Part shown: positions 25,653-40,585 of the stretch, piece after piece
Layout: each line of letters begins with the position of its first letter
Numbering within the stretch: position 1 is the stretch's first letter
DNA from: a virus
Lineage: Duplodnaviria; Caudoviricetes
DNA length: 40,585 nt
IMG/VR virus record: IMGVR_UViG_3300037518_000160
Span: 1 to 40,585 of that record
Strand: one strand, 5' to 3'
Translations under genes and position numbers: made by a program
The notes under the pieces: generated by a model
Told to the model about the DNA's origin: nothing
Database searches by the model: none
What the model saw: only the letters and a program-made list of their open reading frames with translations

Positions 25653-25850
25653 TTAGCGGCTCCTGTTCCATTCTTCCCTGCATCGTTTCTTGCCGATGAT
25701 CTTGACAATCTCTGTCATCAAGGCATAGCGCCTCGGATTGGCGTCACCACGCGGCTCTGGATTCGGAATCTCCGACGGCCACGACCACCTGTTAAGTTGG
25801 CACCACATTTCCGCAAGCCTATGGTTACTCCAGAACTTAAGATCGGTCAT
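25653..25850 (-). CDS. Hypothetical protein
   Basis: 65-aa ORF in the leftward operon. Confidence 0.55.
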   Translation of the reverse strand: MTDLKFWSNHRLAEMWCQLNRWSWPSEIPNPEPRGDANPRRYALMTEIVKIIGKKRCREEWNRSR

Positions 25851-26922
25851 GGCGAGGCGCGACAGCGACTAGTAGCGGCCACGTTGTTTCCAGAGTGGCT
25901 TCGTCCACCATGCACTTATTCCAGATCACCAGCATGGCGCGGCATGTAGCGCGATTGATCTCCACTGGCACTAGCCTCCATCCTTCGCCCTCAGCTTCAG
26001 GCGGCGAAGCGCGGAGGGCATCTCTCTGCTCGACTAGTTTGCGTATCGTCAGAGCAACCGCGAAGTCATTGACCCATTTGCGGTCAGTGAGGAACGAGAG
26101 GCAGACTTCTTCCAAGCGGTTGAGGTCGTATAGGATGCCTTCGGCTGGCTGCTCGACGAACTTCTCAAGGGGCGCGGACATTAGCTCATCAGGCAGGCCC
26201 CAGAACACCACATTACCCTTCTTGCGCTCGGCAAGGATGCGGTCGCGCAATTTCTTCTGTGCTTCGGTTGGAGCGTCTTCGCCATCAGCCCTCGCCTCCC
26301 AAGCAGCCCACATGCTCTCAGTTGGCTTCCACTTGCCAGCGGCAGCCCATTCCTCGAATCGCTTGCGTTCGTCGCTCATTCTTTCTCCTCTCTGTTCGCC
26401 GGAGTGGAGATATCTATCTGCACGGCGAGCAGCTTCGATGATCCGGCGTTCGATCTCCACGGCGAAGTGCTTAGCGTGCTTGCTGCGTCCCCACTCTCTC
26501 GCAAACCCGAGACACAACTTACCGGCGTCGCGCAATCCATCGCTGTAGCCGCTCGCTGCGCACTGAGCCGCTACGTGCAGTGCCTCGAAAGCATCGGCGC
26601 GTTCTTTCCAGTACGCTGCCGATAGCGTCTCTCGGTTGGCGATCTCGCGGGCCTCCTTCAACTCCCGCGCGTTCTCCAGGCACAGACTTTTGAAGCAGCA
26701 GGCGTTGAAGCCGCTTTCGCGCTCGTCCTTCTCTGAGGGCGCAGCAACCGCAGGCAGTGGCTTAGTCGCTTGCGACGGCACTTTGGCATTCACCGTCTGC
26801 GGCGCTGCATTGTTCTTGCTGACTTCCAAGGCGATACCTACAACGTCCATTTCCGTCAGTTTGGCTAGCTGCTCGGAGGCCGAGGGCGCAGCGCCACCTT
26901 CGTACGGTCCTTGAGCGGTCAT
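25837..26922 (-). CDS. Mosaic hypothetical protein (likely internal start at 26379)
   Basis: Long ORF with internal SD+ATG; WRLVPVE motif near the C-terminus. Confidence 0.55.
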   Translation of the reverse strand: MTAQGPYEGGAAPSASEQLAKLTEMDVVGIALEVSKNNAAPQTVNAKVPSQATKPLPAVAAPSEKDERESGFNACCFKSLCLENARELKEAREIANRETLSAAYWKERADAFEALHVAAQCAASGYSDGLRDAGKLCLGFAREWGRSKHAKHFAVEIERRIIEAARRADRYLHSGEQRGERMSDERKRFEEWAAAGKWKPTESMWAAWEARADGEDAPTEAQKKLRDRILAERKKGNVVFWGLPDELMSAPLEKFVEQPAEGILYDLNRLEEVCLSFLTDRKWVNDFAVALTIRKLVEQRDALRASPPEAEGEGWRLVPVEINRATCRAMLVIWNKCMVDEATLETTWPLLVAVAPRHDRS

Positions 26923-26948
26923 TTTCCTTTCCTCGTTGCCGTCCGGCG

Positions 26949-27575
26949 TTAGGGCGCGATCGACGCAAGAAGCTCTTTCTCAGATGCCTCTGCATCTATA
27001 AGTGCGAGATACGCCTTGCCGAATGGATGATCTTGCGGTACTAGCACCATTCCCTCCGGCACCTTCGCCGTACCGCTAGGCGCGGTCTCCGATAGGGCGA
27101 GGAGAGCTCTGGTACGCTCGATCAGTACGGATACTTGCTCGATCGACTCGTCTTTCATGAGCCGCTCCAACCAACCACACATTTCAGTCAGCAACTCCGC
27201 TTTCTCGAAGTCAGCGGCAGTGGTGAAGTAACGCGGCCTCGGGTTGCAGTCCTTCTGCCCCTTGGTCTTGATGGACTGCACGCCGTTCGTAGGTACGTCG
27301 GCTGGCCTCCAGATGTGGCTGCAGCCGTGGCACAAGTGAGACTTATGCGGAGGATTCGTCCAATCCGGCGCGCGCTCGTCTGGCGCATCAATGTGCTGCT
27401 CGCCGCACTGTGGGCACCACAGCAGCATGTCGATTGGCGCTGTCGCAGGCTGCGGCGCTTCCGGCAGGGTAGCGCGCAGCATGTCGCTACTCGCTTGCCA
27501 AGCGGCCCACATGCTCTCTGTAGGCTTCCAATTACCCTCGGCAGCCCATTTTAAAAATAGCTTGCGTTCGTTCAT
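26949..27575 (-). CDS. Hypothetical protein with a Zn-ribbon module
   Basis: PIDMLLWCPQCGEQHIDAP...WTNPPHKSHLCHGCSHIWRPADVPTNGV; KVPEGMVLVP. Confidence 0.65.
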   Translation of the reverse strand: MNERKLFLKWAAEGNWKPTESMWAAWQASSDMLRATLPEAPQPATAPIDMLLWCPQCGEQHIDAPDERAPDWTNPPHKSHLCHGCSHIWRPADVPTNGVQSIKTKGQKDCNPRPRYFTTAADFEKAELLTEMCGWLERLMKDESIEQVSVLIERTRALLALSETAPSGTAKVPEGMVLVPQDHPFGKAYLALIDAEASEKELLASIAP

Positions 27576-27889
27576 TCTTTGACCTTCGGCATGGTGGTTA
27601 TGAGCTTGAGAATGTCTCGCCAGATTCCGTTCTGCGCTGCCCAATAACCGCGCTCCCACGTAGTCTCAGGATTATCGGACTTCGGCTTGGCAATCTCCGC
27701 GCAGCGGTTAGCCACTTCCCGCGCGCTCGGCGCAGTGGCAGATAGGGCGACAACAGCACGCGACAGCTTCAGCGCGTCGAGGGCGTCCTGGTCGCGCTCG
27801 GGCTGGATGCCTTTACGCTCCAAGTCCTCCCAACTCTCTATCAGGTAGTTGGCGAGTTCAAGGGCTTCGCGTTCGGTAGGCTCTTTCAT
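27572..27889 (-). CDS. Hypothetical protein
   Basis: ATGA-coupled. Confidence 0.6.
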   Translation of the reverse strand: MKEPTEREALELANYLIESWEDLERKGIQPERDQDALDALKLSRAVVALSATAPSAREVANRCAEIAKPKSDNPETTWERGYWAAQNGIWRDILKLITTMPKVKE

Positions 27890-28185
27890 TTCATGGCATC
27901 CTTTATGTCCTTGGCAAGTTGCACCAGTTCTGGCTCACCGGATTCACGCAGACGAGCCGTGTAGGGCACAGCCTCGATCTTGGTGATGGTGTCCTCGCCG
28001 CCAAGGCCGTGGATCATCCTGTTGATAGCCCGGATCGCCTCGCCTCGTGCGTTCGCAATCGGCTGATCCACGATGTACGTCTTGTAGAGTGAATCCATCG
28101 CTTCGGCACATCGCTGGATGTTCAGGACGCGCCACCTTTCTGCACTGAGCGGCCCCGGTGCCTCAGACGAGAGCTTTTCGGTCAT
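27886..28185 (-). CDS. Hypothetical protein
   Basis: ATGA-coupled, SD GAGGA. Confidence 0.6.
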   Translation of the reverse strand: MTEKLSSEAPGPLSAERWRVLNIQRCAEAMDSLYKTYIVDQPIANARGEAIRAINRMIHGLGGEDTITKIEAVPYTARLRESGEPELVQLAKDIKDAMK

Positions 28186-28337
28186 GGCTTCCTCGCTGCA
28201 CGTTGTCCGGCTTTGAATGCGTTGCGGGCGATAGACTTCACCACGCTGGCTTGCCACGCCTCTATGTGGGGGACGTTGGTGCGGGCGCGTGCCCACCAGT
28301 CCGCAAAGCGCCTCGGTGGGGTACTGGAGCCGGTCAC
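28182..28337 (-). CDS. Hypothetical 51-aa protein
   Basis: Read from sequence: MTGSSTPPRRFADWW...ARNAFKAGQRAARKP; 4-nt overlaps at both ends. Confidence 0.55.
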   Translation of the reverse strand: MTGSSTPPRRFADWWARARTNVPHIEAWQASVVKSIARNAFKAGQRAARKP

Positions 28338-28540
28338 AGCACGTATTCCTTGTTCACCACGTTATCCTCCGGCATCGGAAATACGTCAAAGCTGTTCTGA
28401 CCGCCCTCGCGCCATGAGTGTTTGTCATTGCACTGTGCAGCGACTTCATCAGCGCGCTTCTGTTCGGTGAACACCCCAACGATGTTCGAGGAAACTCCGC
28501 ACTCGATGCAGCCGACATTGACAACAATCCACTTGCTCAT
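28334..28540 (-). CDS. Hypothetical protein (MSKWIVVNVGCIECGV...)
   Basis: SD GGAGG; CxxC. Confidence 0.6.
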   Translation of the reverse strand: MSKWIVVNVGCIECGVSSNIVGVFTEQKRADEVAAQCNDKHSWREGGQNSFDVFPMPEDNVVNKEYVL

Positions 28541-28577
28541 CGTTCCTCCTGCTTCGTTGTGTAGCTGTTCCGGCGAA

Positions 28578-28778
28578 TCACGCGGGCTTGTCCACAATGG
28601 ACTCCAACTCAGCGATGTAGCAGTTGGCACATTTGCCAGTGCGGAATAGTTGGCCGTAGTGTCCACATGAACAGGAGCCAACGCTGATCTGTTCCAGATC
28701 CTCCGCTTGTGCTTGCACAGCGTCCTCTGTCAGCTTTAGCGCGGCCTTCATATTTGGATCGTTCATGTCGATCATGGA
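28578..28778 (-). CDS. Hypothetical Cys-rich protein
   Basis: SD GGAGGT; CSC...CANC. Confidence 0.55.
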   Translation of the reverse strand, partial: SMIDMNDPNMKAALKLTEDAVQAQAEDLEQISVGSCSCGHYGQLFRTGKCANCYIAELESIVDKPA

Positions 28779-28791
28779 TACCTCCAGTTGG

Positions 28792-29007
28792 TTATTTACG
28801 CGAAGGCTGTGACGCACGAGCACAGGCTGAGGCGCGGTCTTCGGCGTCCTTCAATTGAAGGCGCAGGGCTGATAGTTGGGAACCAGCCATCATCGAAGCA
28901 TCCCTCTCTGCGGCTAGCTCACGCTCTAACTGGCAGCCGTGGGCAAATAGCACGTCAGCAGGCTCGCTGATAAGAGCGTCTGTTCTGGGGGTACTGGAGT
29001 CCGTCAT
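28792..29007 (-). CDS. Hypothetical protein (TPRTDA motif)
   Basis: MTDSSTPRTDA...QLERELA; SD GGAGG. Confidence 0.6.
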   Translation of the reverse strand: MTDSSTPRTDALISEPADVLFAHGCQLERELAAERDASMMAGSQLSALRLQLKDAEDRASACARASQPSRK

Positions 29008-29044
29008 TGTTCCTCCTAATCGTTCGTGCCGAAGATTGGGGCGC

Positions 29045-29311
29045 TCACGCCGTTGTCTCGCCAAGCCGAGTAAGCAGGGCATTGACCGCCTTGCGCGTCT
29101 CGCCCTCGCCTGTGTATCCAGCGATAGTCCAAAGCATCTCGACCATCTCTGGATAGTGGTTGCAGGCGTGGACGATGTAGGCGGCGTCTTCAATCGGCCA
29201 TACCTGCAACTGCTGCGCCCTATCGTTCTGCCGGACGACAAGTGTGCCTCCGTTGGAACATTCTTCTGTGTGCCACGGCAGCGTCGTTGCAGGTTTTTGT
29301 TTGGCTTTCAT
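29045..29311 (-). CDS. Hypothetical phage protein
   Basis: TLPW...DAAYIVHACN motif; SD GGAGG. Confidence 0.65.
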   Translation of the reverse strand: MKAKQKPATTLPWHTEECSNGGTLVVRQNDRAQQLQVWPIEDAAYIVHACNHYPEMVEMLWTIAGYTGEGETRKAVNALLTRLGETTA

Positions 29312-29337
29312 TGTTCCTCCTCGCTCGTTGTGATTAC

Positions 29338-29532
29338 CTACTGCAGCGCAGCGTCTATTGCTGCTTCCTGCTCCGGCGTAGCAGCAACTTGATGCGCGGC
29401 CCAGTTCGCCTTCTGCTCCGGCGTCATTTCTTCCGGGCAGTATTCGAGCATCAGCGCGTCCACCTTGGCTTGTAGGGACTCGGCCTTTGCCTTCCAGTAG
29501 TCGGCCTGCGTCGCGTATTTGCTCATCGTCAT
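29338..29532 (-). CDS. Hypothetical phage protein
   Basis: QAKVDALMLEYCPEEMTPEQ..NW..HQ. Confidence 0.65.
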   Translation of the reverse strand: MTMSKYATQADYWKAKAESLQAKVDALMLEYCPEEMTPEQKANWAAHQVAATPEQEAAIDAALQ

Positions 29533-29559
29533 ATTGTTCCTCTCAGTAGTAGCGCGAAG

Positions 29560-29784
29560 CTAGGCGGCTGCGTTGTGATCGGACGGAACCCACTTTCGGA
29601 TCACGCCATTGGCCGGTCGGATGCACGTCTGCGTGAAACCGAGGGCGTGAAGTTGGCGCAGTACCGTGTTCGCCAGAGCCTCGTCCATCACACAGGAATC
29701 GCGCTTCGTCCTGAAGTAGCGCGGCTTGCCTTCCTCGAACCCGGCGTATAGGTCGCCGTCAGAATTTACGATTACGCAGTCCAT
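29560..29784 (-). CDS. Hypothetical protein
   Basis: SD AAGGAG. Confidence 0.6.
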   Translation of the reverse strand: MDCVIVNSDGDLYAGFEEGKPRYFRTKRDSCVMDEALANTVLRQLHALGFTQTCIRPANGVIRKWVPSDHNAAA

Positions 29785-29829
29785 CTATTTCTCCTTGTCA
29801 TTCGTGCAGAACCTTACAGGGGCGTTTGG

Positions 29830-30048
29830 TCAGCCCCAACATTCGAGTTCATCATTCACCGCGTCATTGGGAGCATAGGCGAGCGCATTTTTCAAACCAC
29901 CCTTTGCATCTAAGGTGGCTCCCCATCCCAAATGAGCGAGAACCCAGGCATACTTCCAGCCTATTTTGGTGGCGCGTTTAATCAAGATCGCGTAGCGCAT
30001 CTTCCACAGCCAGATATAGAAGCGTTGCAATGGGGTCGAAGGTTTCAT
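29830..30048 (-). CDS. Hypothetical protein
   Basis: ATGA-coupled; lower GC than its neighbours. Confidence 0.5.
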   Translation of the reverse strand: MKPSTPLQRFYIWLWKMRYAILIKRATKIGWKYAWVLAHLGWGATLDAKGGLKNALAYAPNDAVNDELECWG

Positions 30049-30422
30049 GCTGCAATCCTCCTTGGTTCGCATCGGCTACTTTTCCTGACGATTACCCAAT
30101 AGCAGTGCGTGTTCTTCGCGTGATGGGCGATCTTCCAGCGCCCGCTCTTGAGGTTGCCCCCGCAGGGGTCGCGCTTGATGATAAGGTCGCACGGCATCAG
30201 CCCGGCCTCACGCACTTTCTGGTTGAACATGGACAGGTTCCACTGGTAACGATGGTTGTGGACGTAGTCCTTGATCTTGGAGAACACCAGCCCGTCATCG
30301 CGCAGGACACGCGCCGCTTCACGCAGGAACGGGGCGTGCAGGCTCTCGATGTTGTCAGCTTTGACGCCGCGAGAAGGGTTGCGGACCCATGCCGAAGCAG
30401 CGGCGGGCGGGAGCGTTCTCAT
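30045..30422 (-). pseudogene. C-terminal half of a DNA methyltransferase-like protein
   Basis: FLREAARVLRDDGLVFSKIKD...CDLII...HAKNTHCYWVIVRK present; no DPPx catalytic or SAM-binding motif upstream. Confidence 0.5.
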
Positions 30423-30718
30423 GCGGCTACTTTCATTCCGGTTTCCCACAGCAGCCGCTCGACCTCGCGGTTCGTCCACGCGAGCAGCCGCACGTCGTCC
30501 AATTTGTGCGAGAGGTAGAAAGCGCGCCGACTCTCGCGGTGAAGCTGACGGTGGTGCATGGCGCAAAGGGGCGCCGTCGCAAAATCTGAATGTTCCCCGC
30601 GCACCGACTCAAGGTGGTGCGCTTCTTCGGCTGGCACTTGAACGCCATGCCGATTCACGCATACCACGCAGGGCAGCCGGTGGATCAGCCCGAGCCAGCG
30701 CTTGGAAGCGGCGCTCAT
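30419..30718 (-). CDS. Ref/DUF968-like HNH-fold nuclease
   Basis: LPCVVC...EAHH...PLCAMHH. Confidence 0.7.
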   Translation of the reverse strand: MSAASKRWLGLIHRLPCVVCVNRHGVQVPAEEAHHLESVRGEHSDFATAPLCAMHHRQLHRESRRAFYLSHKLDDVRLLAWTNREVERLLWETGMKVAA

Positions 30719-31209
30719 TCGATTTTCAGCCTATCGCCCTGGACCAGATGGGCGCCATCGATGATTACGCCGGCCTTCAAGTCTTCCCGGATCTTGTTCC
30801 GATCTGGTTCCCGTTTCTCTGGAATGATGCGCTCGTATTCGGCGGGGACTGGCCCCGTGAGTTCCACGGCCGGCGGGTTCTTGACTATCTTCGCCTTGAA
30901 GGTGCCGTCGTTCGCTCGGATCTCGGTGATGCCGAGCACCTTCATGTTCGTGTAGAGATATCCACGAAGGCCGTCCGCCTTGCGCTGCGCAGAATCTGCA
31001 CGGGCCTTGAGCTTCTTGGCTGCATTGGCGATCGCTTCGGCCTCGGCCTCGATGTTCAGCACGAAGGCGACGACGTTCTGGCCCTTGAGGGCGATCTGAC
31101 CTTCTAGGTTCGCCAGGGCTTGGTGGACCTGTTCCGCGTCGGCATCATCCGGTAGCTCGGACAATGCCGTGCGGTACTGATCCGTCAGGGCGTAGAGGGA
31201 GAGGTTCAT
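30715..31209 (-). CDS. Siphovirus Gp157-family protein
   Basis: MNLSLYAL, coiled coil, KNPPAV...VPAEY...PDRNKI..DLKAG..IDGAHL. Confidence 0.9.
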   Translation of the reverse strand: MNLSLYALTDQYRTALSELPDDADAEQVHQALANLEGQIALKGQNVVAFVLNIEAEAEAIANAAKKLKARADSAQRKADGLRGYLYTNMKVLGITEIRANDGTFKAKIVKNPPAVELTGPVPAEYERIIPEKREPDRNKIREDLKAGVIIDGAHLVQGDRLKIE

Positions 31210-31601
31210 CAGAACGGGATGTCGTCGGCCATGTCGTCGAACTTGGAGCCGGTCTTCGGGTGAACGCGGGTGGGCTCTTTTTCCTTGCCCTTGAAGCGTA
31301 GCCCGCCCACAAGCTCGCCGCCGAAGGTCACGTTGTCATCCGTGAACAGGACGATCTCTTTCCCGGTCCATTCGTCTGTGTTGTCGGACCCGAGGACTTT
31401 TTCGGCGATCTTGATGTTGGTGGAATTGAGTACCATCGGCTTGGCAAACTCCTTGAACCGGACGGCCCACTTGTATTCCGGGGCAGCGTCTTCCTTCGCG
31501 AGGTTTACCTTGCCGATTTTGATGATGGTGACGATGACCGGATCAGGCACGTCGGAAGTCTTCAGGTACTTGGACTGGATCATGTCGCTGGTGCGTGGCA
31601 T
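31209..31601 (-). CDS. Single-stranded DNA-binding protein-like
   Basis: SKYLK, PMVLNSTN, WTGKEIVL, acidic SSB-type tail DDMADDIPF. Confidence 0.7.
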   Translation of the reverse strand: MPRTSDMIQSKYLKTSDVPDPVIVTIIKIGKVNLAKEDAAPEYKWAVRFKEFAKPMVLNSTNIKIAEKVLGSDNTDEWTGKEIVLFTDDNVTFGGELVGGLRFKGKEKEPTRVHPKTGSKFDDMADDIPF

Positions 31602-31777
31602 TACGTTCTCCTCTGTCGAATAGTTGCTTGCCATTGCCGCGAAAGCCCGCACTCGCTGGCGAGAAGCGCGGCTTGTTCTTTCAGCCCACAAGCGGCTATT
31701 TCCATGAGCGCCTGTAGTAGGATGGCTTCGCGCTCCTCGTCTGCAATCTGATGCTGATAGTCGAGGCGGGCGTTCAC
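31601..31777 (-). CDS. Hypothetical protein
   Basis: Coupled ORF; ALLASECGL. Confidence 0.55.
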   Translation of the reverse strand: MNARLDYQHQIADEEREAILLQALMEIAACGLKEQAALLASECGLSRQWQATIRQRRT

Positions 31778-32079
31778 AGTGTTCCCTTCGTGACCGTGCC
31801 GCCCTCGTAGACGCACTTGGCGTAGCAGAGCTTCTTGTCTGGCTGGTGCACGACTTGGACGCGAAGGTGCTTGCCTCGGTGTATCTTCAGGCAGTCGCAG
31901 AGCAACTCCCGGTAGTAGGCGCGGGCGCGCTTGACGCGCATCTCCTTCTCCATCGCCTCGATTACGAGCTGGTCGGCGTAGTCGCCGCCGTAGGGCCAGC
32001 CGCTGCCGACGAAGCCGAAGGCGGCGAGCAGAAGGGCGAGGGCGCACACGCCGCCGATGATTTCGTGGAGCAGCCTCAT
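31774..32079 (-). CDS. Hypothetical protein with an N-terminal TM segment
   Basis: IIGGVCALALLLAAFGFVG; SD GGAGGT. Confidence 0.6.
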   Translation of the reverse strand: MRLLHEIIGGVCALALLLAAFGFVGSGWPYGGDYADQLVIEAMEKEMRVKRARAYYRELLCDCLKIHRGKHLRVQVVHQPDKKLCYAKCVYEGGTVTKGTL

Positions 32080-32252
32080 TTCCCGCACCTCCACCTACGC
32101 CGCGTGCTGGCCGGGGCTTGGGCGTGCGCCATCCAGAACACCCATAAGCGAATCCGCGCAGACCCTACGAAGCCGCCCAGCAAATCGCGCCGCGCCAGTT
32201 GCAGAAGCTCCATGAGGTCGCCGTACCTGCTCGCGTACTGGTTGCCGCTCAC
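32076..32252 (-). CDS. Hypothetical 58-aa protein
   Basis: Read from sequence; 4-nt overlaps at both ends. Confidence 0.45.
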   Translation of the reverse strand: MSGNQYASRYGDLMELLQLARRDLLGGFVGSARIRLWVFWMAHAQAPASTRRRWRCGK

Positions 32253-32476
32253 TTGTCGCGCTCCGCGAGCATGGCGTCGGCGATTTGAAAGATATGCGTT
32301 GGAACATTTCTAAAAAAATGGTCCGCGCCGAAACAGGCTCCATTCGCTTTGAAGTATTCCGCGATAATCTGACTGGCGATTGCCGCAGCGAAGTAGTCGC
32401 GCAGGGACATGCCGATTAGCAACGGATGCAGCGATTGATCGCCAACCGGAAACGCTGGCCCGCCGTCAGGTTTCAT
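32249..32476 (-). CDS. Conserved small phage protein (GGPAFP...GMSLRDYFAA family)
   Basis: GGPAFP, GMSLRDYFAA, IADAMLAER. Confidence 0.8.
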   Translation of the reverse strand: MKPDGGPAFPVGDQSLHPLLIGMSLRDYFAAAIASQIIAEYFKANGACFGADHFFRNVPTHIFQIADAMLAERDK

Positions 32477-32658
32477 AGTTCGCTCCTCGCTGCGTTGACG
32501 CGCAGCACCAGCTCGGCAAACTCGGCAACGTCGTCACGTTCACGCTTGGGCGCGTGCGGATTTTCTGCCCGCCACAGGTAGCACTCGCCGGCCTTGGAAC
32601 ACTCGCCGGCAGCGACAGGGCAGCCGATGGGGGAGACGCACTTCACCACGGCCACCAC
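32473..32658 (-). CDS. Hypothetical Cys-rich protein
   Basis: ORF in operon; start uncertain. Confidence 0.45.
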   Translation of the reverse strand: MVAVVKCVSPIGCPVAAGECSKAGECYLWRAENPHAPKRERDDVAEFAELVLRVNAARSEL

Positions 32659-32762
32659 TTCATAAGCGCGAGCACCGCAGCGATGACGGCCGCGTAGATG
32701 CCGAGGGAGATAACCCCGGCGAGCGCGATCCCGCGAACGGTGTCCAGGTCGTCGGGCTTCAT
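32643..32762 (-). CDS. 39-aa single-TM peptide
   Basis: Read from sequence: MKPDDLDTVRGIALAGVISLGIYAAVIAAVLALMKWWPW. Confidence 0.55.
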   Translation of the reverse strand: MKPDDLDTVRGIALAGVISLGIYAAVIAAVLALMKWWPW

Positions 32763-33022
32763 GCAGCCCGTCCTTCCTGTCCTGCTGCGCGGCGAGCTAG
32801 GCAGTATTGTTTGATGTCGTCTAGAGAGAAGCCCGCGTTGCGCAACGCCACGAACGGCATGCGCTCGATCTGGTGCACCGGCAACTTGTCGAGGAAGGCT
32901 CTACCATTGGGGAAGTTGTTGAGCCCGCATGGCGCACAGGCGTAGTGCCGGACGCCGTACTTGAACAGGGGCGTCTTGAAGTTGTCCATGCGGCAGAACC
33001 GGCAGTGGTTGATGGTGTTCAA
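32759..33022 (-). CDS. Hypothetical Zn-binding protein
   Basis: CRFC...KYGVRHYACAPC; TTG start with GGAGGT SD. Confidence 0.6.
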   Translation of the reverse strand: MNTINHCRFCRMDNFKTPLFKYGVRHYACAPCGLNNFPNGRAFLDKLPVHQIERMPFVALRNAGFSLDDIKQYCLARRAAGQEGRAA

Positions 33023-33258
33023 GCTGACCTCCGCGCTTTTCTGGCGGCGACCTTCTCTGCACGCTCGCGCGCGACGCGCTGCTTGACGGCCAGCGACCAA
33101 GCAGCCCCGAGGTCGAGAACCTCCTCGGAGTGCAAGCCCTTCGGCCGCAGGAGTAGGAGCGAGCCGTGCAGCGTGGCGATCAGAGGGCGCATGCCGCGCT
33201 CTCGCACGTAGGCGCCGGTCTCGCGCGTCACCGAGTTGATCGTGCACTTGGTGGTCAC
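33019..33258 (-). CDS. Hypothetical phage protein
   Basis: VTRET...RPLIATL....LLLRPKG. Confidence 0.6.
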   Translation of the reverse strand: MTTKCTINSVTRETGAYVRERGMRPLIATLHGSLLLLRPKGLHSEEVLDLGAAWSLAVKQRVARERAEKVAARKARRSA

Positions 33259-33476
33259 GCATCCTCCCCGAGTTCGCGCAGGAGGGTACGGGCCTCGCAC
33301 ACTGGGACCGGCATGAACTGCGGTGTGTAGCCGGACTTCTCGCAATGCTCGGTGTATAGGTGCTCGTACTTTCGCGCGAGACTCCGCAGCTCCTCCACCA
33401 GCCGCGCACGATCATTGGCTAACTGTTGGATCACGTCAGGGACGCGACGCAGCGGCGTTGCGGGTGTGTGCTTCAT
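33255..33476 (-). CDS. Hypothetical protein
   Basis: MKHTPATPL...; ATGA-coupled. Confidence 0.55.
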   Translation of the reverse strand: MKHTPATPLRRVPDVIQQLANDRARLVEELRSLARKYEHLYTEHCEKSGYTPQFMPVPVCEARTLLRELGEDA

Positions 33477-33688
33477 TTGTCGCCCCGCGCTTCCGCGCCG
33501 CTCAGGTCGCGCTCGTGGTAGTAGGGAGCTTCTTGGTCGTCCTCCGTGACATCGCGGTAGACGAGTTCGCACCCAACGTGGACGCGGGCACTGAGCCAAT
33601 CCAGCGTGCCGACGCCGATCAGGTAGGCCGCGCCCGTGGGCGACTTGCTGAATCCGACGTACTCCGTTGTGGGTGTGTGCTTGGTCAT
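33473..33688 (-). CDS. Hypothetical protein
   Basis: MTKHTPTT...; SD GAGGAG. Confidence 0.55.
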   Translation of the reverse strand: MTKHTPTTEYVGFSKSPTGAAYLIGVGTLDWLSARVHVGCELVYRDVTEDDQEAPYYHERDLSGAEARGDK

Positions 33689-33861
33689 GCGGCTCTCCTC
33701 ACAAGTTCGTTCGTGCCCAAGTCCCAGCCACGGCGCCACTCGGCATACAGCGGGTCTTCGGGCTGGTACGGGTTGAGGTTGTTCGACAGGGCCAGCCTGC
33801 CGACCCGGGCGCCTTCGGTGAAGGCGGACTGGCGGTGCTGCTCGAGTAGGTTCGCGTCCAT
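33685..33861 (-). CDS. Rmf/CrpP-like small protein, first gene of the PL operon
   Basis: Read from sequence: MDANLLEQHRQSAFTEGARVGRLALSNNLNPYQPEDPLYAEWRRGWDLGTNELVRRAA (AFxEG...NPY...WxxGW). Confidence 0.65.
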   Translation of the reverse strand: MDANLLEQHRQSAFTEGARVGRLALSNNLNPYQPEDPLYAEWRRGWDLGTNELVRRAA

Positions 33862-33870
33862 GTGGAACCG

Positions 33871-33899
33871 AGACTAAAGTAATGCTTTCCTGTTGTCAA
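33871..33899 (-). promoter_or_regulatory. PL-like sigma70 promoter
   Basis: TTGACA-17 nt-TAGTCT on the minus strand, overlapped by two operators. Confidence 0.85.
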
Positions 33900-33910
33900 G
33901 CAATGCTTGA
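33875..33910. promoter_or_regulatory. OL operators: TAAAGTAATGCTTTC (33875-33889) and TCAAGCAATGCTTGA (33896-33910)
   Basis: 15-bp palindromic sites, 21-bp pitch; the second is a perfect palindrome. Confidence 0.85.
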
Positions 33911-33948
33911 TTACGAGGTATGGGGTAGGATTAGGGCGGGGGTGCCCT

Positions 33949-34062
33949 ATGGACGAACAGGTAAAGCTGCTGAAGAAGATCGCCGGGTCGCTGAGCGCCT
34001 TGAACAGCGCGGCGGCGATCATCGCGGTGCTGCTGGTCTACATCGCCTTCAGGGTGAGCTAG
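33949..34062 (+). CDS. 37-aa membrane peptide in the immunity region
   Basis: Read from sequence: MDEQVKLLKKIAGSLSALNSAAAIIAVLLVYIAFRVS. Confidence 0.5.
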   Translation: MDEQVKLLKKIAGSLSALNSAAAIIAVLLVYIAFRVS

Positions 34063-34286
34063 AAGCGGGGCTCGTCCTTGGGGGCGAGGCCGTCCAGGAC
34101 GGCCGCCAGTAGCGGCTCGAAGTCCTCGGAGCTATCGAAGGCTTCCCGCACGGCGAGACCCATCTTGCGGATCGCTCGCTGGCGTTCCTTGCGCAGGATC
34201 AGGCTGCGGCCGCCGCGCTCATAGTGGCGCACCATCCAAGCTGCATTGAGGATAGCGGCCACGAGAGCAGCGTGGTCTGGTGCCAT
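34059..34286 (-). CDS. Hypothetical protein downstream of the repressor
   Basis: 75-aa ORF. Confidence 0.5.
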   Translation of the reverse strand: MAPDHAALVAAILNAAWMVRHYERGGRSLILRKERQRAIRKMGLAVREAFDSSEDFEPLLAAVLDGLAPKDEPRF

Positions 34287-34305
34287 ACCCGACGAACAGC
34301 ATCAA

Positions 34306-34722
34306 CTAGGCGACAGTTGCCCTAAGACCTTGAAGCTTTGTCAGGATTCTGCGCAGCAGCGATTTACCATAATACACAAGCGAAGCGACGCGCGAAGAAA
34401 ATGAGGCGCGCGCATCGTCGGCGGAGAAGGGCGGCAGCAGTAGCGCGAATAGCAGGGCCAGCGGCGCCCCGATCCTGAGCCATGCGTTTTTCGTCTGCCT
34501 GGATTCGCCACGGCGTCCCTCAAGAAAGAACTCGATGGGCTGCCCGGTGATCTCTGCTATCGTTTGCAGGTGCCGCTTGGCGACGCGGCCGGTGGTCCTC
34601 CAGCTATGAACAGCCTGGGGACTCACGTCGCATTGCGCGGCAAGGTCGATCTGCCGGATTGGCGGGTTGTGACCATCCATCGCCGAGGTAATCCGCTTCG
34701 CCAATTCCTTTGCATCAAGCAT
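34306..34722 (-). CDS. CI-like XRE HTH repressor without an S24 peptidase domain; hydrophobic C-terminal segment
   Basis: QIDLAAQCDVSPQAVHSW HTH; divergent from cro with operators between; SD GGAG before ATG 34722. Confidence 0.85.
   Translation of the reverse strand: MLDAKELAKRITSAMDGHNPPIRQIDLAAQCDVSPQAVHSWRTTGRVAKRHLQTIAEITGQPIEFFLEGRRGESRQTKNAWLRIGAPLALLFALLLPPFSADDARASFSSRVASLVYYGKSLLRRILTKLQGLRATVA
34362..34389 (-). other. dif/cer-like XerCD site (candidate attP) inside the repressor gene
   Basis: Minus strand GTCGCTTCGCT-TGTGTA-TTATGGTAAAT versus E. coli dif GGTGCGCATAA-TGTATA-TTATGTTAAAT; XerD arm 10/11, spacer 5/6, XerC arm degenerate. Confidence 0.65.
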
Positions 34723-34785
34723 AAGTTGATTCTCCATTTTGCGGGGCAAACAAGCAATAGTTGACTTCAGGAAAGTAATGCTTTA
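34715..34785. promoter_or_regulatory. OR operators: TCAAGCATAAGTTGA (34715-34729), ACAAGCAATAGTTGA (34750-34764), GAAAGTAATGCTTTA (34771-34785)
   Basis: Same 15-bp consensus as OL; 21-bp pitch between the two rightmost sites. Confidence 0.85.
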
Positions 34786-34789
34786 TTTT
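34761..34789 (+). promoter_or_regulatory. PR-like sigma70 promoter
   Basis: TTGACT-17 nt-TATTTT, ending 7 nt before the cro ATG. Confidence 0.75.
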
Positions 34790-34796
34790 CCGCCCC

Positions 34797-35051
34797 ATGA
34801 CCAAACAAGAACGGCGGCGCCTGGCCGCTGCCCTGGAAAGGGCGGTTGAAGAAGCCGGCGGGCCGGCCGAGGTCGCCCGCTTTATCTCCGAGAAGTACGA
34901 GCCCATCACCGCGCAGGCCGTTTGGGCCTGGAACGGGAAGCCTTGCCCGCCTCGGCGCGCCGTACAAGTAGCCGCCGCCGTTGCTGCTCGAGGGGGTCGT
35001 ACATCCGCGCAGGACATTCGACCGGACCTATACGAGCCGCTCGCCGCATGA
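34797..35051 (+). CDS. cro: Cro-like (YdaS-type) HTH protein
   Basis: AVEEAGGPAEVAR...ITAQAVWAW...PPRRA...DIRPDLY. Confidence 0.88.
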   Translation: MTKQERRRLAAALERAVEEAGGPAEVARFISEKYEPITAQAVWAWNGKPCPPRRAVQVAAAVAARGGRTSAQDIRPDLYEPLAA

Positions 35052-35263
35052 GCCTTCGCGGCAAGGAAGTTCGTCCGTTCATCGGGCATACGTTTCACGA
35101 AAAGCTGGCGATTATGGCCGAGTTCAAGGACGACATGCAGCTCGCGGAACTCGCTGCGCGCATCCTCGAAAAAGGCATCGTGGCCGAGTGGCATGAGATC
35201 AGCGTACTGATAGAGCGTTCCGAGCGCCTCGGAAAGCGTTGGAAGGCCACGGAAACGAAATGA
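35048..35263 (+). CDS. Small regulator in the CII position
   Basis: MSLRGKEVRP..., ATGA-coupled to cro; possible ribbon-helix-helix. Confidence 0.55.
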   Translation: MSLRGKEVRPFIGHTFHEKLAIMAEFKDDMQLAELAARILEKGIVAEWHEISVLIERSERLGKRWKATETK

Positions 35264-35354
35264 CTTTCTCCAGCCGCCCGGGACCCTCCTTCCCCCACAA
35301 GGGCGTTTCCTCCCGGCGCCCATGGTGCTGGACCATGGCCGGGGGGATTTTCTG

Positions 35355-36425
35355 GTGAAGGCACATCCGGTCGCCAGCATCTTCCCGGCTATGGGCGAGG
35401 CCGAGTATGCCGCGCTCAAGGCGGACATCAAGGCGAACGGGCAGCGTGAGGCGATCTGGACGTGGCAAGGCCAGATCATCGACGGCAGGCACCGCGACAG
35501 GGCTTGCAGCGAGCTCGGCGTGCCGTGCCAAGCCCGGGAGCACCAGGGCGAGGAGTCTGGGCTGGTGGGCTTCGTCGTCTCGCTCAACCTGCACCGCAGG
35601 CATCTGAACGAAAGCCAGCGGGCGGTAGTGGCGGCGCGAATTGCGACTTTGCCGCAAGGGCCAAACAGGGTCACCGGAAAATCTGCCGGTGTATCGCAGG
35701 AGGAGGCCTCGGCCCTACTCAACGTAAGCGACCGGAGCATCCGGGACGTGAAGCGCCTTGAACGCGAAGCGCCCGAGTTGCTGCCAAAGGTGGAGGCCGG
35801 CGAGCTTTCCCTGAATGCCGCGGTAGGCGAGATCAAGAAACGCGAGCGCGTCGTCGCCATTACCAGCCAGAGAGATGAGCTTGCGCGGGCGCGACCCGAG
35901 GCACCGCTCGGCCTGTTCAACGTGATCGCCATCGACCCGCCGTGGCCATACGGTGAGGAGATCGACGTCACCGGCTACGACGCCATCGGGCATCGTGCCT
36001 CGAATCCCTACCCGGAGATGGCGCTTGAGGACATTACTGCCATCAAGCCGCCAGCCGCCGCAGATTGCGTGCTGTGGCTATGGACAACGCACCGCTTCAT
36101 GCGCCACGCCTTCCCGATCCTCGACGTCTGGGGCTTCGAGGACAAGGCCATCGTCACTTGGGCCAAGGACCGCATGGGCCTTGGCCGGTGGCTTCGCTCG
36201 CAAAGCGAGTTCTGCATCATGGCGGTGAAGGGTAAGCCGCCGATCACTCTCACGAACCAGACCACCATCGTCACCGGGCCGATGCGCGAGCACTCCCGCA
36301 AGCCCGACGAGTTCTACGCCATGGTCGACAGCCTGTGCCACGGCCGAAAGCTGGACTACTTCTCCCGCGAGAAGCGCGAAGGATGGGAGCAGTTCGGCAA
36401 CGACGTCGAGAAGTTCGCCGCATGA
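35355..36425 (+). CDS. ParB-like domain fused to an MT-A70-family adenine methyltransferase
   Basis: N-terminal IIDGRHR..AC, SLNLHRRHL; C-terminal IDPPW, LWLWTT, HSRKP. Confidence 0.9.
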   Translation: MKAHPVASIFPAMGEAEYAALKADIKANGQREAIWTWQGQIIDGRHRDRACSELGVPCQAREHQGEESGLVGFVVSLNLHRRHLNESQRAVVAARIATLPQGPNRVTGKSAGVSQEEASALLNVSDRSIRDVKRLEREAPELLPKVEAGELSLNAAVGEIKKRERVVAITSQRDELARARPEAPLGLFNVIAIDPPWPYGEEIDVTGYDAIGHRASNPYPEMALEDITAIKPPAAADCVLWLWTTHRFMRHAFPILDVWGFEDKAIVTWAKDRMGLGRWLRSQSEFCIMAVKGKPPITLTNQTTIVTGPMREHSRKPDEFYAMVDSLCHGRKLDYFSREKREGWEQFGNDVEKFAA

Positions 36426-36931
36426 ACTTCGCGGACATGCCTCAAGCCCAGAAGGGGGCTCTCGGCGAGGAGATTGTAGACGACTTCCTACGAGGGAAGA
36501 TGGTCATCCCTTATCGGCCACATTTCGATGGCGCGCACCCGTTCGACAGGCTGTGCGCAACGGCAGATAAGCGGACGGTGTTCATCGCCGACGTGAAGTG
36601 CAAGCCACAACGTAAGTTCTTCCCAGATACGGGCATCAACCTCAAGAATTACCACGAGTACAAGTTCATCCAAGGCAAGTACGGGTTGCGTATCTTCATT
36701 TTCTTCGTGGATGAGTCGGAAAGGAAGGTCTACGGGAATTGGATCGACCAACTTGAGGCCGACACGATCGTTGTTCTGCAAAGCGGCAAGCGCATTAAGT
36801 ATCCATTGCGGGGCGGCAAAATTATCTATTTCCCGAGGCAGAACATGCGTGACATTGCTGCCGTAGATGACGCGCGCGCGTTGAAACTAAAACAACTCTC
36901 TACCCGAAACGAGGCATACGTCTACGAATAG
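36422..36931 (+). CDS. PD-(D/E)XK nuclease-like protein
   Basis: KGALGEEIV...PFDRL...IADVKCK; ATGA-coupled to the MTase; lower GC. Confidence 0.65.
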   Translation: MNFADMPQAQKGALGEEIVDDFLRGKMVIPYRPHFDGAHPFDRLCATADKRTVFIADVKCKPQRKFFPDTGINLKNYHEYKFIQGKYGLRIFIFFVDESERKVYGNWIDQLEADTIVVLQSGKRIKYPLRGGKIIYFPRQNMRDIAAVDDARALKLKQLSTRNEAYVYE

Positions 36932-36939
36932 CTTGCGCG

Positions 36940-37114
36940 TGGGTGGACGACAGCGCGCGTTGGCAAAAGCGGTACTGGTTGTCAGGGGTGAAACACCGCA
37001 CATGGGGCTGGCGAAGCTAGCGGCCCTTCCCCGAAAAGGCTGGCGGGTGTCGAGGCTCCGGCAGAAGCGGAATCGACTGAAGGCCACCTAGTCTAAGGCT
37101 AGGTGCGCTCACCA
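36940..37114 (+). ncRNA. Structured non-coding element upstream of the replication gene
   Basis: At least four hairpins plus a terminal stem GGTGGACG/CGCTCACC within a 209-nt gap. Confidence 0.55.
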
Positions 37115-37140
37115 ACAGAGCGGATTAAAGGGCCAAGGGC

Positions 37141-37557
37141 ATGAAAGGCGAAGAAGGCTTCGACGAGTTCTGGAAAGCGTACCCGCGCAAGAAGAAGAAG
37201 GGTGATGCGCGGAAGGCGTGGCAACAGACGGCGCCGATTCGGCCGCCGCTTGAGAAGCTGATTCGTGCCGTGATTGTCGCGCGCGCGACGAAGGACTGGA
37301 CGAAGGACGACGGCGAGTTCGTACCGTACCCGGCGACTTGGCTTCGTGCGGAGTGTTGGGAAGACGTACACGATGTGGAGATAGACCGCGTGAGGGATGG
37401 CAAGGCGTGGCACGAGTCGGTGCACGGCATAGAGAAGCGGGCGAGGGAGCTCAACATGGAGTGGAACGCGCGTGAGGAAACCTTCCAGCAATTCGCGCGG
37501 CGGGTCAAAGCCGTCAGCGACTCAGGAAACGTTGTTCCCATTGGGCGGGCAGCGTGA
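37141..37557 (+). CDS. Replication initiator C-terminal domain only (O/DnaD-like helicase-loader-recruiting domain)
   Basis: FDEFWKAYPRK..KGDARKAW...FVPYPATWL...WED at the very N-terminus; in-frame TAA at 37126-37128. Confidence 0.75.
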   Translation: MKGEEGFDEFWKAYPRKKKKGDARKAWQQTAPIRPPLEKLIRAVIVARATKDWTKDDGEFVPYPATWLRAECWEDVHDVEIDRVRDGKAWHESVHGIEKRARELNMEWNAREETFQQFARRVKAVSDSGNVVPIGRAA

Positions 37558-37754
37558 CGCTGGACCAGGCGATCAAGTTGCAGGAGGAGCAGGCGAGGTG
37601 CGAGCTGGAGATGTGCTACCGGCTGACAGTGGAGGAGATAGTGGAGTACCTGCATTGGGCTCAGTCTCAATCGAGTGGTATGCCGATAAGCAGCGCGAAT
37701 ACCGAGAGGCTGGCGAGCGAAGTGCAGCGGCGTATTGGGCGGCGCGCGGGGTGA
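37554..37754 (+). CDS. Hypothetical protein
   Basis: GTGA-coupled. Confidence 0.55.
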   Translation: MTLDQAIKLQEEQARCELEMCYRLTVEEIVEYLHWAQSQSSGMPISSANTERLASEVQRRIGRRAG

Positions 37755-37789
37755 GGTGGCCGTGACTTTTCAACGAACAGGAGGTAGTC

Positions 37790-37981
37790 ATGTCATTCAA
37801 GTTCGAGATGCAGCAAGAAGTGCGACTCGTGCAGAGCGGAGAACACGGCGCAGTCATCGGGCGCGCGGAATACACTTTCGGGAACGAGAACCGGTATCTG
37901 CTGCGGTACGTTACGACGGACGGCCGACAAGTCGAAAGCTGGGAATCGGAGTCGGCGCTGCGGAATCACGTCCAAGCGTGA
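37790..37981 (+). CDS. Small SH3-like hypothetical protein
   Basis: FKFE..QEV....GE.G.VIGRAEY...YLLRY...W..ESAL; strong SD. Confidence 0.7.
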   Translation: MSFKFEMQQEVRLVQSGEHGAVIGRAEYTFGNENRYLLRYVTTDGRQVESWESESALRNHVQA

Positions 37982-37987
37982 TCTAGC

Positions 37988-38758
37988 GTGGCTGAGACCA
38001 CCGGCATCTCCTGGACCGACAGCACCTTCAATCCGTGGATCGGATGCACGAAGGTCGGGCCTGGTTGCGACCACTGCTACGCCGAGGCTCTGGACAATCG
38101 CCACCGCTGGCAGGGCGCTATGCATTGGGGCGTGGGCGTGCCGCGGATGCGGACGAGCGCGGCCAACTGGAAGAAACCGCTGGCGTGGAACGCGAAGGCG
38201 CAGGCTTCCGGCAAGCCGTGGCGGGTGTTCTGCGCGTCCTTGGCCGATGTGTTCGACAACGAAGCGCCGGACGAATGGCGCCGTGACCTGTGGGACCTGA
38301 TCGAGCTCACGCCGAGCCTAACGTGGCTTCTGCTCACGAAGCGCATCGGCAACGCCATCCGCATGCTGCGCACGAACGATTGGGCCGCGTCGACGCGCTG
38401 GAACGTCTGGATCGGCGCAACTATCGTCAACCAGGACGAGGCCTACAGGGATGTGCCGAAGCTGCTCGCCACGCCGGCGCGCGTTCGGTTTGTGTCCTAC
38501 GAGCCCGCCTTGGGGCCGGTGGACTGGAGGCGCTATCCCGGCATCGACTGGATCATCGTAGGCGGGGAAAGCACGCAGGGCGCGAAGGCTCGACCGTTCG
38601 ACTTGCAGTGGGCCTACCACACGATAGGCGATGCCGAGCAGATGGGGGCCGCGCCGTTCGTGAAGCAGCTCGGCAGTTGCAACGGATTCAAGGATCGCGC
38701 CGGCGCCGACCCGGCCGAGTGGCCTCTTGGCCTGCGCGTGCAGGAGTTCCCGAAGTGA
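37988..38758 (+). CDS. DUF5131 / phage Gp37Gp68 family protein
   Basis: ISWTDSTFNPWIGCTKVGPGCDHCYAE, LLLTKR, SYEPALG, WIIVGGES, FVKQLG. Confidence 0.92.
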   Translation: MAETTGISWTDSTFNPWIGCTKVGPGCDHCYAEALDNRHRWQGAMHWGVGVPRMRTSAANWKKPLAWNAKAQASGKPWRVFCASLADVFDNEAPDEWRRDLWDLIELTPSLTWLLLTKRIGNAIRMLRTNDWAASTRWNVWIGATIVNQDEAYRDVPKLLATPARVRFVSYEPALGPVDWRRYPGIDWIIVGGESTQGAKARPFDLQWAYHTIGDAEQMGAAPFVKQLGSCNGFKDRAGADPAEWPLGLRVQEFPK

Positions 38759-39138
38759 TCGAGCGCCGCTTCATCATCGGCTCGGAGTCCGTGCGCCGGA
38801 ACGTGTCGGCCTTCATTGCCAAGCTGCCGTTCGAGAAGCCGGTGGAGGTATTCGTTCGTGACTACATCGAGAAGCGCAGCCTGGAGCAGAACGCTAGGCT
38901 GTGGGCGCTTCACAGCAAGGCCGGCGACTTCGTGGGCTGCACTGCCGAGGAGATGCACGAGGACATGCTGCGCATGGTGTACGGCTACAAGGAAGTCACG
39001 ATGCCTAGCGGCCACGTCGAGCGCGTCCCGTTGAAGCGTTCGAGTACCCGCAACCGCAAGGAGTTCGCCGAGTTCATGGAGAAGGTGGAGGCGTTCTATA
39101 TCGCCGAGCTGGGCGTGTACCTGGAGCAGGCGGCGTGA
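38755..39138 (+). CDS. ninB: NinB/Orf-family recombination protein
   Basis: KRSLEQNARLWA, RSS....EFAEFMEKVEA. Confidence 0.85.
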   Translation: MIERRFIIGSESVRRNVSAFIAKLPFEKPVEVFVRDYIEKRSLEQNARLWALHSKAGDFVGCTAEEMHEDMLRMVYGYKEVTMPSGHVERVPLKRSSTRNRKEFAEFMEKVEAFYIAELGVYLEQAA

Positions 39139-39440
39139 GTCCGACCCAGCGCACGCTCTTCTACTTGAGAAAGAAGGGCTACACGGCCGTCATCACGGAG
39201 CGCTGGAACTCGTTCGCGAAAATCCGGCAGGACATGTTCGGCATCGTGGACGTGCTTGCTGTCCGTAGCGGCGAAACGCTGGCCGTGCAGTGCACGAGCG
39301 CACCGAATGTGGCCTCCAGAGTCACAAAGATAGCCGAGCACGAGAGCACGCCGAGGTTGCGGGAGGCTGGCTGGCGCATAGAGGTGCACGGCTGGACGAA
39401 GGGCAAGCGCGGCGATCCGCGCATCGTGGATTGCTCGTGA
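39135..39440 (+). CDS. PD-(D/E)XK nuclease, Holliday-junction resolvase-like
   Basis: LRKKGY...DMFGIVDVLAV...LAVQCT. Confidence 0.7.
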   Translation: MSPTQRTLFYLRKKGYTAVITERWNSFAKIRQDMFGIVDVLAVRSGETLAVQCTSAPNVASRVTKIAEHESTPRLREAGWRIEVHGWTKGKRGDPRIVDCS

Positions 39441-39835
39441 TCGACGAAGCGGTGCGGCTGTACTCGAAAGCCCAGCGTGTGCCCGTCGATGTCGTCGCCC
39501 CACAACACGAGGACATTCACGCCGACCTTGAGAAATGGGGAAGGTGGAACCGTGAACGTACGGCGTCCCGTGGCTGCGCTTCCGCCGAGTCCGTGTACGA
39601 GAAAACCCGCACACCGGGCTCCACGGCGCACGAGGTGGATCTGAGAAGCGTGCAGCTTGAGCGTGCGGTGCTCAATGTGCCAGAGCCGTACAGGCAGACG
39701 TTGCGATTGTTCTACGTGCAGGGCATCAGTCCCTCAGCCCTGTGCAAGGGATTCTCCATGCGCCACGAGGCCTTCGCTGCGTGGATGTTCGCTGCCCGGG
39801 CGATGGTTGTAAACTTGCTGATGAGGCACGCATGA
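39437..39835 (+). CDS. Late regulator, antiterminator Q-like
   Basis: LEKWGRW N-terminus, C-terminal sigma-region-4-like HTH; position before the late promoter. Confidence 0.65.
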   Translation: MIDEAVRLYSKAQRVPVDVVAPQHEDIHADLEKWGRWNRERTASRGCASAESVYEKTRTPGSTAHEVDLRSVQLERAVLNVPEPYRQTLRLFYVQGISPSALCKGFSMRHEAFAAWMFAARAMVVNLLMRHA

Positions 39836-40026
39836 AAATTCGCATTTTCTTGCTGGACATGCAGGACACGGGCGAGCGCCGCACGCCGAGCGAGATTGTC
39901 GAGGAAATGGGAATCCGATATGCTCGATGGGAATCGCATCCTATCGCCGACCAGATTCACCTGATCGGCGTTGACGAAGGCTCGTTGCACAAGGCGTTGC
40001 CTTCCTATATGACGCTCGAGCCTTGA
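39832..40026 (+). CDS. Hypothetical protein
   Basis: ATGA-coupled. Confidence 0.55.
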   Translation: MKIRIFLLDMQDTGERRTPSEIVEEMGIRYARWESHPIADQIHLIGVDEGSLHKALPSYMTLEP

Positions 40027-40061
40027 CCGACAAGACACACCGCCCCTAGCGTCTCCAAGGG

Positions 40062-40090
40062 GCTTGATTCGCAAGCGATTGTGGTATAGT
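40062..40090 (+). promoter_or_regulatory. Late promoter (PR'-like)
   Basis: Extended -10 TG-G-TATAGT after the Q-like gene, followed by GC-rich hairpins around 40115-40165. Confidence 0.6.
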
Positions 40091-40267
40091 GGCGCCGACA
40101 ACTTGACCTAGCACCACGCCTACAAGCGTGTGAGCCAGCCCGGGAAGCCTGGGCGCCGGCTCATTCACCCCAGAAACCCATGAAGAAACAGACGCGCAGG
40201 CGCGCTCGCTTGTGCTCGCCCCCACATTGCCAGCGCATCACGTTGCAGACGAAGTGCGAGAGGTGCC

Positions 40268-40558
40268 GTGGCTTGGCCATACGATTTCCGCTGGCAGAAG
40301 GCGAGCAAGGCCTATCTGTGCACGCACCCATTGTGCGCAATGTGCAAGAAGCAGGGCAGGGTCACTGCAGCGCAGGTGGTGGACCACATCACCCCCCATA
40401 AGATGGACATGGTGCTGTTCTGGGACACCGATAACTGGCAGTCCCTGTGCAAGCGCTGCCACGACAGCCTGAAGCAGCGCATAGAGAAATCAGGGCCGGG
40501 CTTCGATGCCGAAGGCAATCCACTCGACGCCAAGCATCATTGGCGACGGGGGGGATGA
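40268..40558 (+). CDS. Terminase-associated HNH endonuclease (HK97 gp74-like)
   Basis: HPLCAMC, VVDHITPH, NWQSLCKRCHD; last gene before the cos/terS junction. Confidence 0.92.
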   Translation: MAWPYDFRWQKASKAYLCTHPLCAMCKKQGRVTAAQVVDHITPHKMDMVLFWDTDNWQSLCKRCHDSLKQRIEKSGPGFDAEGNPLDAKHHWRRGG

Positions 40559-40585
40559 GAAAACTTTTCGTGTTTCGCGCTAGAC

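Follow-up and report, generated by a model that had tools for sequence, protein, structure and literature searches.

The closest described systems are viruses that borrow XerC and XerD, recombinases of their host, to reach dif, a route reported to date in filamentous viruses and others without tails. The dif-type double jelly-roll phages PM2 and Cr39582 are described as using a one-armed 17-bp attP that consists of an XerD arm and the centre (PMC12715192). In XacF1, attP lies inside the regulator gene ORF12 (PMC4076744). TLC-phi is described with an Xer activator called XafT (PMC6744903, PMC4246890, PMC9226527), and Xer helpers outside its family, DUF3653, have been suggested as possible (PMC6744903). 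Mycobacteriophage BPs carries attP inside its repressor gene, and integration alters the C-terminus of the repressor, which bears an ssrA-like tag (PMC4557955). Tailed plasmid prophages are reported to have Xer-like recombinases of their own (PMC8026635). In other words, one-armed 17-bp attP sites (PM2-like), attP sites inside regulators (XacF1, BPs), and Xer activators (TLC) are each known, to the extent that these sources describe them. A tailed phage that integrates at dif by Xer was not found in the literature surveyed, which took in a minority of the subscription papers.

The window, the whole 40,585-nucleotide stretch of viral DNA that was analysed, has a different build. PHROG matches give the gene order terS, terL, portal, protease, major head, connectors, tape measure, tail fibre, lysis, early-left genes, cI/cro, replication, and HNH (Table 1). 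The terL product is 69% identical to that of Pseudomonas phage PAJU2 and 46% identical to that of HK97. A terS-to-HNH, cos-to-cos order is the layout of HK97-like phages, and the record is read as cos-to-cos because its first base lies 48 bases before terS and its last base 27 bases after the HNH gene. An earlier note on this DNA had called the genome apparently complete. The layout, together with the presence of all head, tail, lysis, early-left, immunity, and replication modules, supports this description, but IMG/VR gives the topology as linear, CheckV estimates completeness at 57%, and end repeats are absent. The same note had described a cI/cro switch in a genome lacking integrase, transposase, and ParA, and here it proved right: cI and cro match PHROG repressor families, a six-frame search with PF00589 and PF00239 (tyrosine and serine recombinases) found no match, and no integrase, transposase, or ParA was found among 90 + 30 ORFs (PHROGs) or 52 ORFs (Pfam). 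The usual integrase slot between the lysis and early-left genes (about 24.6-24.7 kb) lies inside the contig and is empty. A 361-aa ORF at 25837-26922 was considered as a hidden integrase and rejected; it has no PHROG or Pfam match.

Table 1. Features of the window discussed in the text (positions are those of the window; a dot marks features given without strand).
Feature	Position	Strand	Basis and remarks
HK97-like siphovirus genome, terS to HNH, recombinase not found	1..40585	.	PHROGs, Pfam, six-frame searches, terL comparison
Two operator-like repeats (putative OL), XerD side of site	33875..33911	.	repeat match only; copies at 33877/33898
ORF75, conserved 75-aa protein with three helices, without a known family; 92 bases behind site; candidate Xer helper	34059..34286	-	homologue searches, predicted fold
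cI-like repressor	34306..34722	-	ORF, PHROG match, structure model; start possibly 34737
XerD-type arm TTATGGTAAAT of putative attP	34362..34372	-	16.6 of 24.7 possible bits against host-family XerD arm
Central hexamer TGTGTA, identical to host-family dif	34373..34378	-	comparison with family dif
XerC-side arm GTCGCTTCGCT, degenerate	34379..34389	-	-13.2 bits; 10/11 bases kept in phage L292
Two operator-like repeats (putative OR), XerC side of site	34750..34786	.	repeat match only; copies at 34752/34773
cro-like gene, divergent from cI	34797..35051	+	PHROG match

Some other genes of the window deserve mention. Directly after cII, an MT-A70 adenine methylase (35322-36425) carries a fused ParB-like domain. 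Glycosyltransferase-like, methyltransferase, and kinase-like genes (5615-9858) separate the major head gene from the head-tail connectors, suggesting a possible glycosylation of the virion or of a surface; a related phage genome, G159, carries an epimerase in a comparable place. The tail fibre is followed by a moron for an OmpA-like outer-membrane beta-barrel (22291-22806, minus strand), a candidate superinfection-exclusion gene.

The 3' end of cI contains the dif-like sequence TGTGTA TTATGGTAAAT (minus strand, 34378..34362), which is read as VYYGK in the frame of the repressor. The motif, its frame, and its character as an AT-rich patch in GC-rich DNA are as first described: the GC content is 24% in the 17-mer, 60% in cI, and 62% in the genome. 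The 17-mer is unique in the genome at up to two mismatches and was matched in 0 of 100 shuffles, and the 11-bp XerD-type arm alone has a single genome match, with 6 of 100 shuffles giving one. Against a host dif matrix built from 87 sites (72 distinct), the centre and XerD arm score 29.4 bits, and among the high-ranking window positions none but the site scores above 0. A chance origin of the 17-mer was rejected on the basis of the shuffles and the matrix scores. The XerC side is another matter. Its score lies below those of the host XerC arms (minimum -9.3, median 6.9), and 41% of random 11-mers score as low. Judged by score, this arm is no better than random against the host dif and can be called dead. 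The site is considered one-armed, like the attP of PM2, because its XerC arm scores at the random level. The earlier note had mentioned neither the degenerate XerC arm nor the 75-aa gene downstream.

How does this locus compare with the described ones? It resembles PM2 and Cr39582 as described in that it is double-stranded DNA without an integrase, has a 17-bp putative attP made of an XerD arm and the centre, and has a repressor on one side of the site and a small gene on the other (PMC12715192). It differs in that the window is a 40.6-kb HK97-like tailed phage with head, portal, tape measure, and tail genes, that its small gene, ORF75, lacks a Pfam match, and that its site lies inside the repressor ORF, whereas theirs is placed between p15 and p16 (PMC12715192). 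A site in the 3' part of an HTH regulator is shared with XacF1 and Cf1c, although XacF1 is described as keeping the centre and the XerC arm and the window keeps the centre and the XerD arm (PMC4076744). Dif is also read in several frames in filamentous repressors, as set out below; unlike XacF1 and Cf1c, the window is a tailed dsDNA phage with a cI/cro switch. Taken together, the phage works like an IMEX (integrative mobile element exploiting Xer), with class membership putative: its genome, in a record that is not closed, lacks a recombinase of its own, and its dif-like site is compatible with the dif of an inferred host at 29.4 bits, with an XerC arm at the random level.

Evidence that the site is kept as DNA comes from a comparison of repressors, a check that the earlier note had proposed and that turned out in favour of its reading. 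Among 117 repressor homologues of 100-180 aa, 34 end in dif-derived peptides, in three forward readings (VYYxK in 11, CVLC in 8, xIMxN in 3) and three readings of the reverse strand (TH in 6, YT(L/Q) in 5, IH in 3; two proteins have two readings). Such peptides occur in 25 of the 28 homologues with a hydrophobic segment versus 9 of the 89 without one, in a set of mutually related sequences and with peptide patterns drawn up after the tails had been seen. Because the reading frames differ among homologues, conservation of the motif only as protein was rejected, and the constraint on the site acts at the DNA level. The repressors of small filamentous-type records read dif in the same three frames, and both prophage ends are present in the records L045/L046 and L062/L063. 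VYYVK arises by chance in unrelated proteins at 7 of 121 loci. In a control set of 101 other repressor loci, none had a match to the centre and XerD arm with fewer than three mismatches. The four closest cI homologues read VYYVK (two) or VYFVK (two); the latter, seen as protein only, implies a change in the XerD arm.

Further evidence comes from phage L292, which emerged from a pattern scan of 119 loci. L292 is a tailed lambdoid fragment with terL, and its repressor belongs to another family yet carries the same tail. It shares with the window 26 of 28 site bases and 16 of the 17 bases of the 17-mer, whereas the nearby flanks agree at only 6/15 and 7/15 positions. An integrase search gave no match in this fragment, whose left arm is incomplete. 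Wider searches returned little. Viral-contig searches with a single repressor protein or an alignment found mostly ordinary cI genes, scans of genomes and metagenomes with a linker alignment found only L123-like contigs and unrelated proteins, and in a phylum sample of 151 genomes the A2 query found nothing. The tail of repressor P0106 contains, at the protein level, dif readings in both directions, YYVK forward and LHN..THW reverse, which may reflect two sites in inverted order. A GC-rich viral record of 28 kb (L282, G157) has a TGTGTA-type core with a degenerate XerC arm; it has no PF00589 match and no gene in common with the window.

The 75-aa gene accompanies the site. It lies downstream in all six phage loci read (the window, L292, L123, L360, L361, and L365), at 92-156 bases from the hexamer. 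A single query found 121 homologues, and a profile found 618 clusters. The predicted fold consists of three helices (pLDDT 88). ORF75 has no match above noise in Pfam, none in PDB, BFVD, INPHARED, or PLSDB, and only unnamed clusters, below 0.9, in the Atlas. DUF3653, the XafT family, matches 0 of 119 ORF75 sequences and is absent among 52 window ORFs. Judged from its position alone, ORF75 might be an Xer helper, a suggestion that is tentative at most.

In L123, L360, L361, and L365 the site is of a reverse type. These four relatives have a host-like XerC arm (5.1-8.7 bits) next to the hexamer and an XerD arm (9.8-16.6 bits; null maximum 9.1) displaced 24-40 bases from it, the opposite of the window. 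At this distance the XerD arm is too far off for a normal Xer site. The window resembles TLC-phi, as described, in having one degenerate arm and a neighbouring small gene that may aid Xer. It differs in that the sources portray TLC as lacking the XerD arm and the window lacks the XerC arm, and in that ORF75 is not a DUF3653 protein; the TLC-type layout of an intact XerC and a degenerate XerD arm is absent from the window and fits the four reverse-type relatives. At least four repressor families carry the tail, so the unit that travels comprises the tail, the site, and ORF75. This cassette does not always replace an integrase: in G159 (L360), a 44.8-kb genome judged complete from its terminal repeats, ORF75 and a reverse-type site occur together with an intact-looking tyrosine integrase. 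A 51-aa membrane-type ORF (33907-34062, plus strand) is convergent on ORF75, and different small genes occupy this slot in L292, L360, and G771, like a moron slot.

Which bacteria might carry such a phage? The order was sampled by way of PF12112, which we take to be betaproteobacterial. ORF75 was found in one of 401 genomes (G446) and was absent from every other genome in two overlapping order samples of 401; within the family of G446 it occurs in 2 of 317. The 17-mer matches the dif of this family, including its unusual TGTGTA centre. TGTGTATTATGKNAAAK is exact in 150 of the 317 family genomes, or 147 of 314 without three unpublished ones (G635, G643, G670), on which no other result depends, and is nearly always in single copy; the control matches none. 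The host link is made through the dif match and ORF75, not through a named host. Across the dif loci of the family (L367-L521) the TGTGTA centre is invariant and the XerC arm very variable, and in 110 of 144 loci the chromosomal dif lies near a gene that is presumably DUF1178-like.

The earlier note had proposed testing whether related prophages end at dif with the repressor spanning the junction. Among 147 dif loci of the family (148 sites, a few loci being duplicates, with the three unpublished genomes and five unlisted matches set aside), none was found to hold a tailed prophage. What the survey did find is a 9.6-kb tailless element between two dif sites (G829:C43, 39-9630, L413). Its repressor ends in CVLC across a degenerate XerC arm and a host XerD arm, and at its other end a host XerC arm stands beside the usual neighbour gene. 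The ten ORFs scanned include a repressor, a packaging ATPase, a capsid protein, and an endolysin; an integrase was not found among them. The element is probably double jelly-roll-like, outside Vibrio, and presents the geometry of the window's site in the integrated state. At G742:C43, 117 bases of a similar repressor tail remain at dif. In G771:C86, host genes are followed by dif, by ORF75 at 88 bases, and by a ParB-like gene, reaching the end of the contig. An empty dif beside the usual neighbour gene is found in G771:C104, whose flank agrees with that of G771:C86 at 121 of 123 bases, the two differences lying in the XerD arm of the element. This arrangement fits a reverse-type element at dif, in which no clear terminase was found and whose other junction is missing from the contigs. 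Contigs of four sediment runs were also compared with 24000-40585: no loose end or joint at the site was among those listed, 829 further loose ends lay outside that set, and the best run is possibly the source sample.

The site also bears on the repressor protein. cI consists of an HTH domain (about residues 1-70), a hydrophobic helix, a P and AxA motif, VYYGK, and an 18-residue basic tail; the predicted model has residues 80-100 as one helix and 113-142 as another. Read by eye, helix 80-100 with its P and AxA motif looks signal-peptide-like, and the odds that cI is anchored in the membrane are about even. Because the tail sits behind this predicted membrane segment, its sequence can probably carry dif in whatever frame. 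Operator-like repeats lie on either side of the site, which agrees with the previously proposed geometry of a site flanked by OL and OR. Host DNA read in the VYY frame stops immediately after VYYxK at 56 of 141 sites and gives fewer than 18 codons at 86, and for this reason integration would usually shorten cI. The earlier note had proposed that integration swaps a degron-like tail for host-encoded sequence. The last 18 residues would indeed be replaced, but the degron part fared poorly: an alanine ends only 10 of 34 tail-type repressors (12 of 83 others), the tails differ widely in length and frame, and they sit behind a signal-peptide-like segment. A degron switch in the cI tail is possible, yet rather unlikely, and it is not needed to explain the tail. 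As in BPs, whose attP lies inside the repressor gene, integration at the putative attP in cI would change the C-terminus. Unlike the window, BPs reportedly integrates with its own phage-encoded integrase, and its tag is proven, whereas the degron of the window is putative.

These observations converge on a model in which the phage likely integrates at the host dif through host XerC and XerD, by means of the one-armed site in the 3' end of cI; this is the best-supported reading, with a probability of roughly two in three. Once the cos ends have closed, XerCD would bring the phage site and the host dif together, and the crossover would take place in the TGTGTA hexamer common to both. One junction would join the host XerC arm to the phage XerD arm, creating a functional dif, behind which ORF75, OL, and the early-left operon would lie. 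The second would be made up of cI, the dead XerC arm of the phage, and the XerD arm of the host, a weak site that would guard against accidental excision. ORF75 might aid the imperfect pairing, as XafT does for TLC, which is a weak prediction. Integration would cut ORF75 off from the cI transcript, and cI would lose or exchange its last 18 residues.

Dif integration had been the central proposal of the earlier note. The core match, the cross-frame conservation, and the same-geometry elements at dif speak for it, whereas neither this phage nor any proven tailed element was found at dif. The G829:C43 element and the G742:C43 tail remnant have the same geometry at dif, and the 88-base spacing in G771:C86 resembles the phage spacing. 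Against it stand the rarity of ORF75 in the family (2/317 genomes), the apparent integrase of G159, the VYFVK reading in two of the four closest homologues, an XerC arm below every host arm, and the CheckV estimate.

An improbable alternative is that the tail, the half-dif, and ORF75 are a borrowed cassette of filamentous or double jelly-roll origin, now vestigial in a phage that has lost its integrase and is lytic or helper-dependent. The cassette beside an integrase in G159, the random-level XerC arm, the VYFVK homologues, and the 147 loci lacking a tailed prophage would all fit this explanation. It accounts poorly for the 16 of 17 bases kept under a different repressor in L292 while the flanks drift, for a match that follows the unusual centre of the host family, and for ORF75 at a real dif junction in G771:C86. 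More improbable still is a cer-like role, in which XerCD resolves dimers, either of a prophage kept like a plasmid or of phage circles during replication. The missing integrase and the ParB-like domain are compatible with this role, as is the XerD arm, which we take, as quoted in the earlier note, to equal that of cer. However, ParA was not found in the PHROGs and Pfam scans, recombination between two copies of the site would bring together two dead XerC arms, and the same family has one-armed sites with this geometry integrated at dif.

The chances are slimmer again that XerD, or XerCD, binds the arm to control transcription through cI and ORF75, with no crossover. This would suit the XerD arms 24-40 bases from the hexamer in four reverse-type phages, one of them with its own integrase. 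The central hexamer matters for strand exchange rather than binding, and in the window, in L292, and at the reverse-type loci it is the same as in the host, which argues against control of transcription. Least probable of all is an incomplete assembly with an integrase outside the contig, since the CheckV estimate and the lack of end repeats are countered by the terS-to-HNH layout with all modules and by an empty integrase slot inside it.

What would XerCD integration at dif mean? Tentatively, and with the odds against it, the window may belong to a large unnoticed lambda-like class whose lysogeny rests on a portable cassette that combines a tail anchoring unrelated repressors in the membrane, a half-dif placed in either orientation and in whatever frame, and ORF75 as a new Xer-activating family of more than 600 clusters. 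In such a class, XerCD integration would at once truncate the repressor, part OL from OR, and turn off the activator, and so would itself be the lysogeny switch. The site of the window offers a natural putative attP with a dead XerC arm, a mirror image of TLC, and ORF75 is a candidate Xer helper outside DUF3653. Prophage finders and lifestyle predictors class integrase-less tailed phages as lytic or incomplete. If dif integration is true, a soil- and sediment-type lambdoid family uses host XerCD for lysogeny, and such tools misread it.
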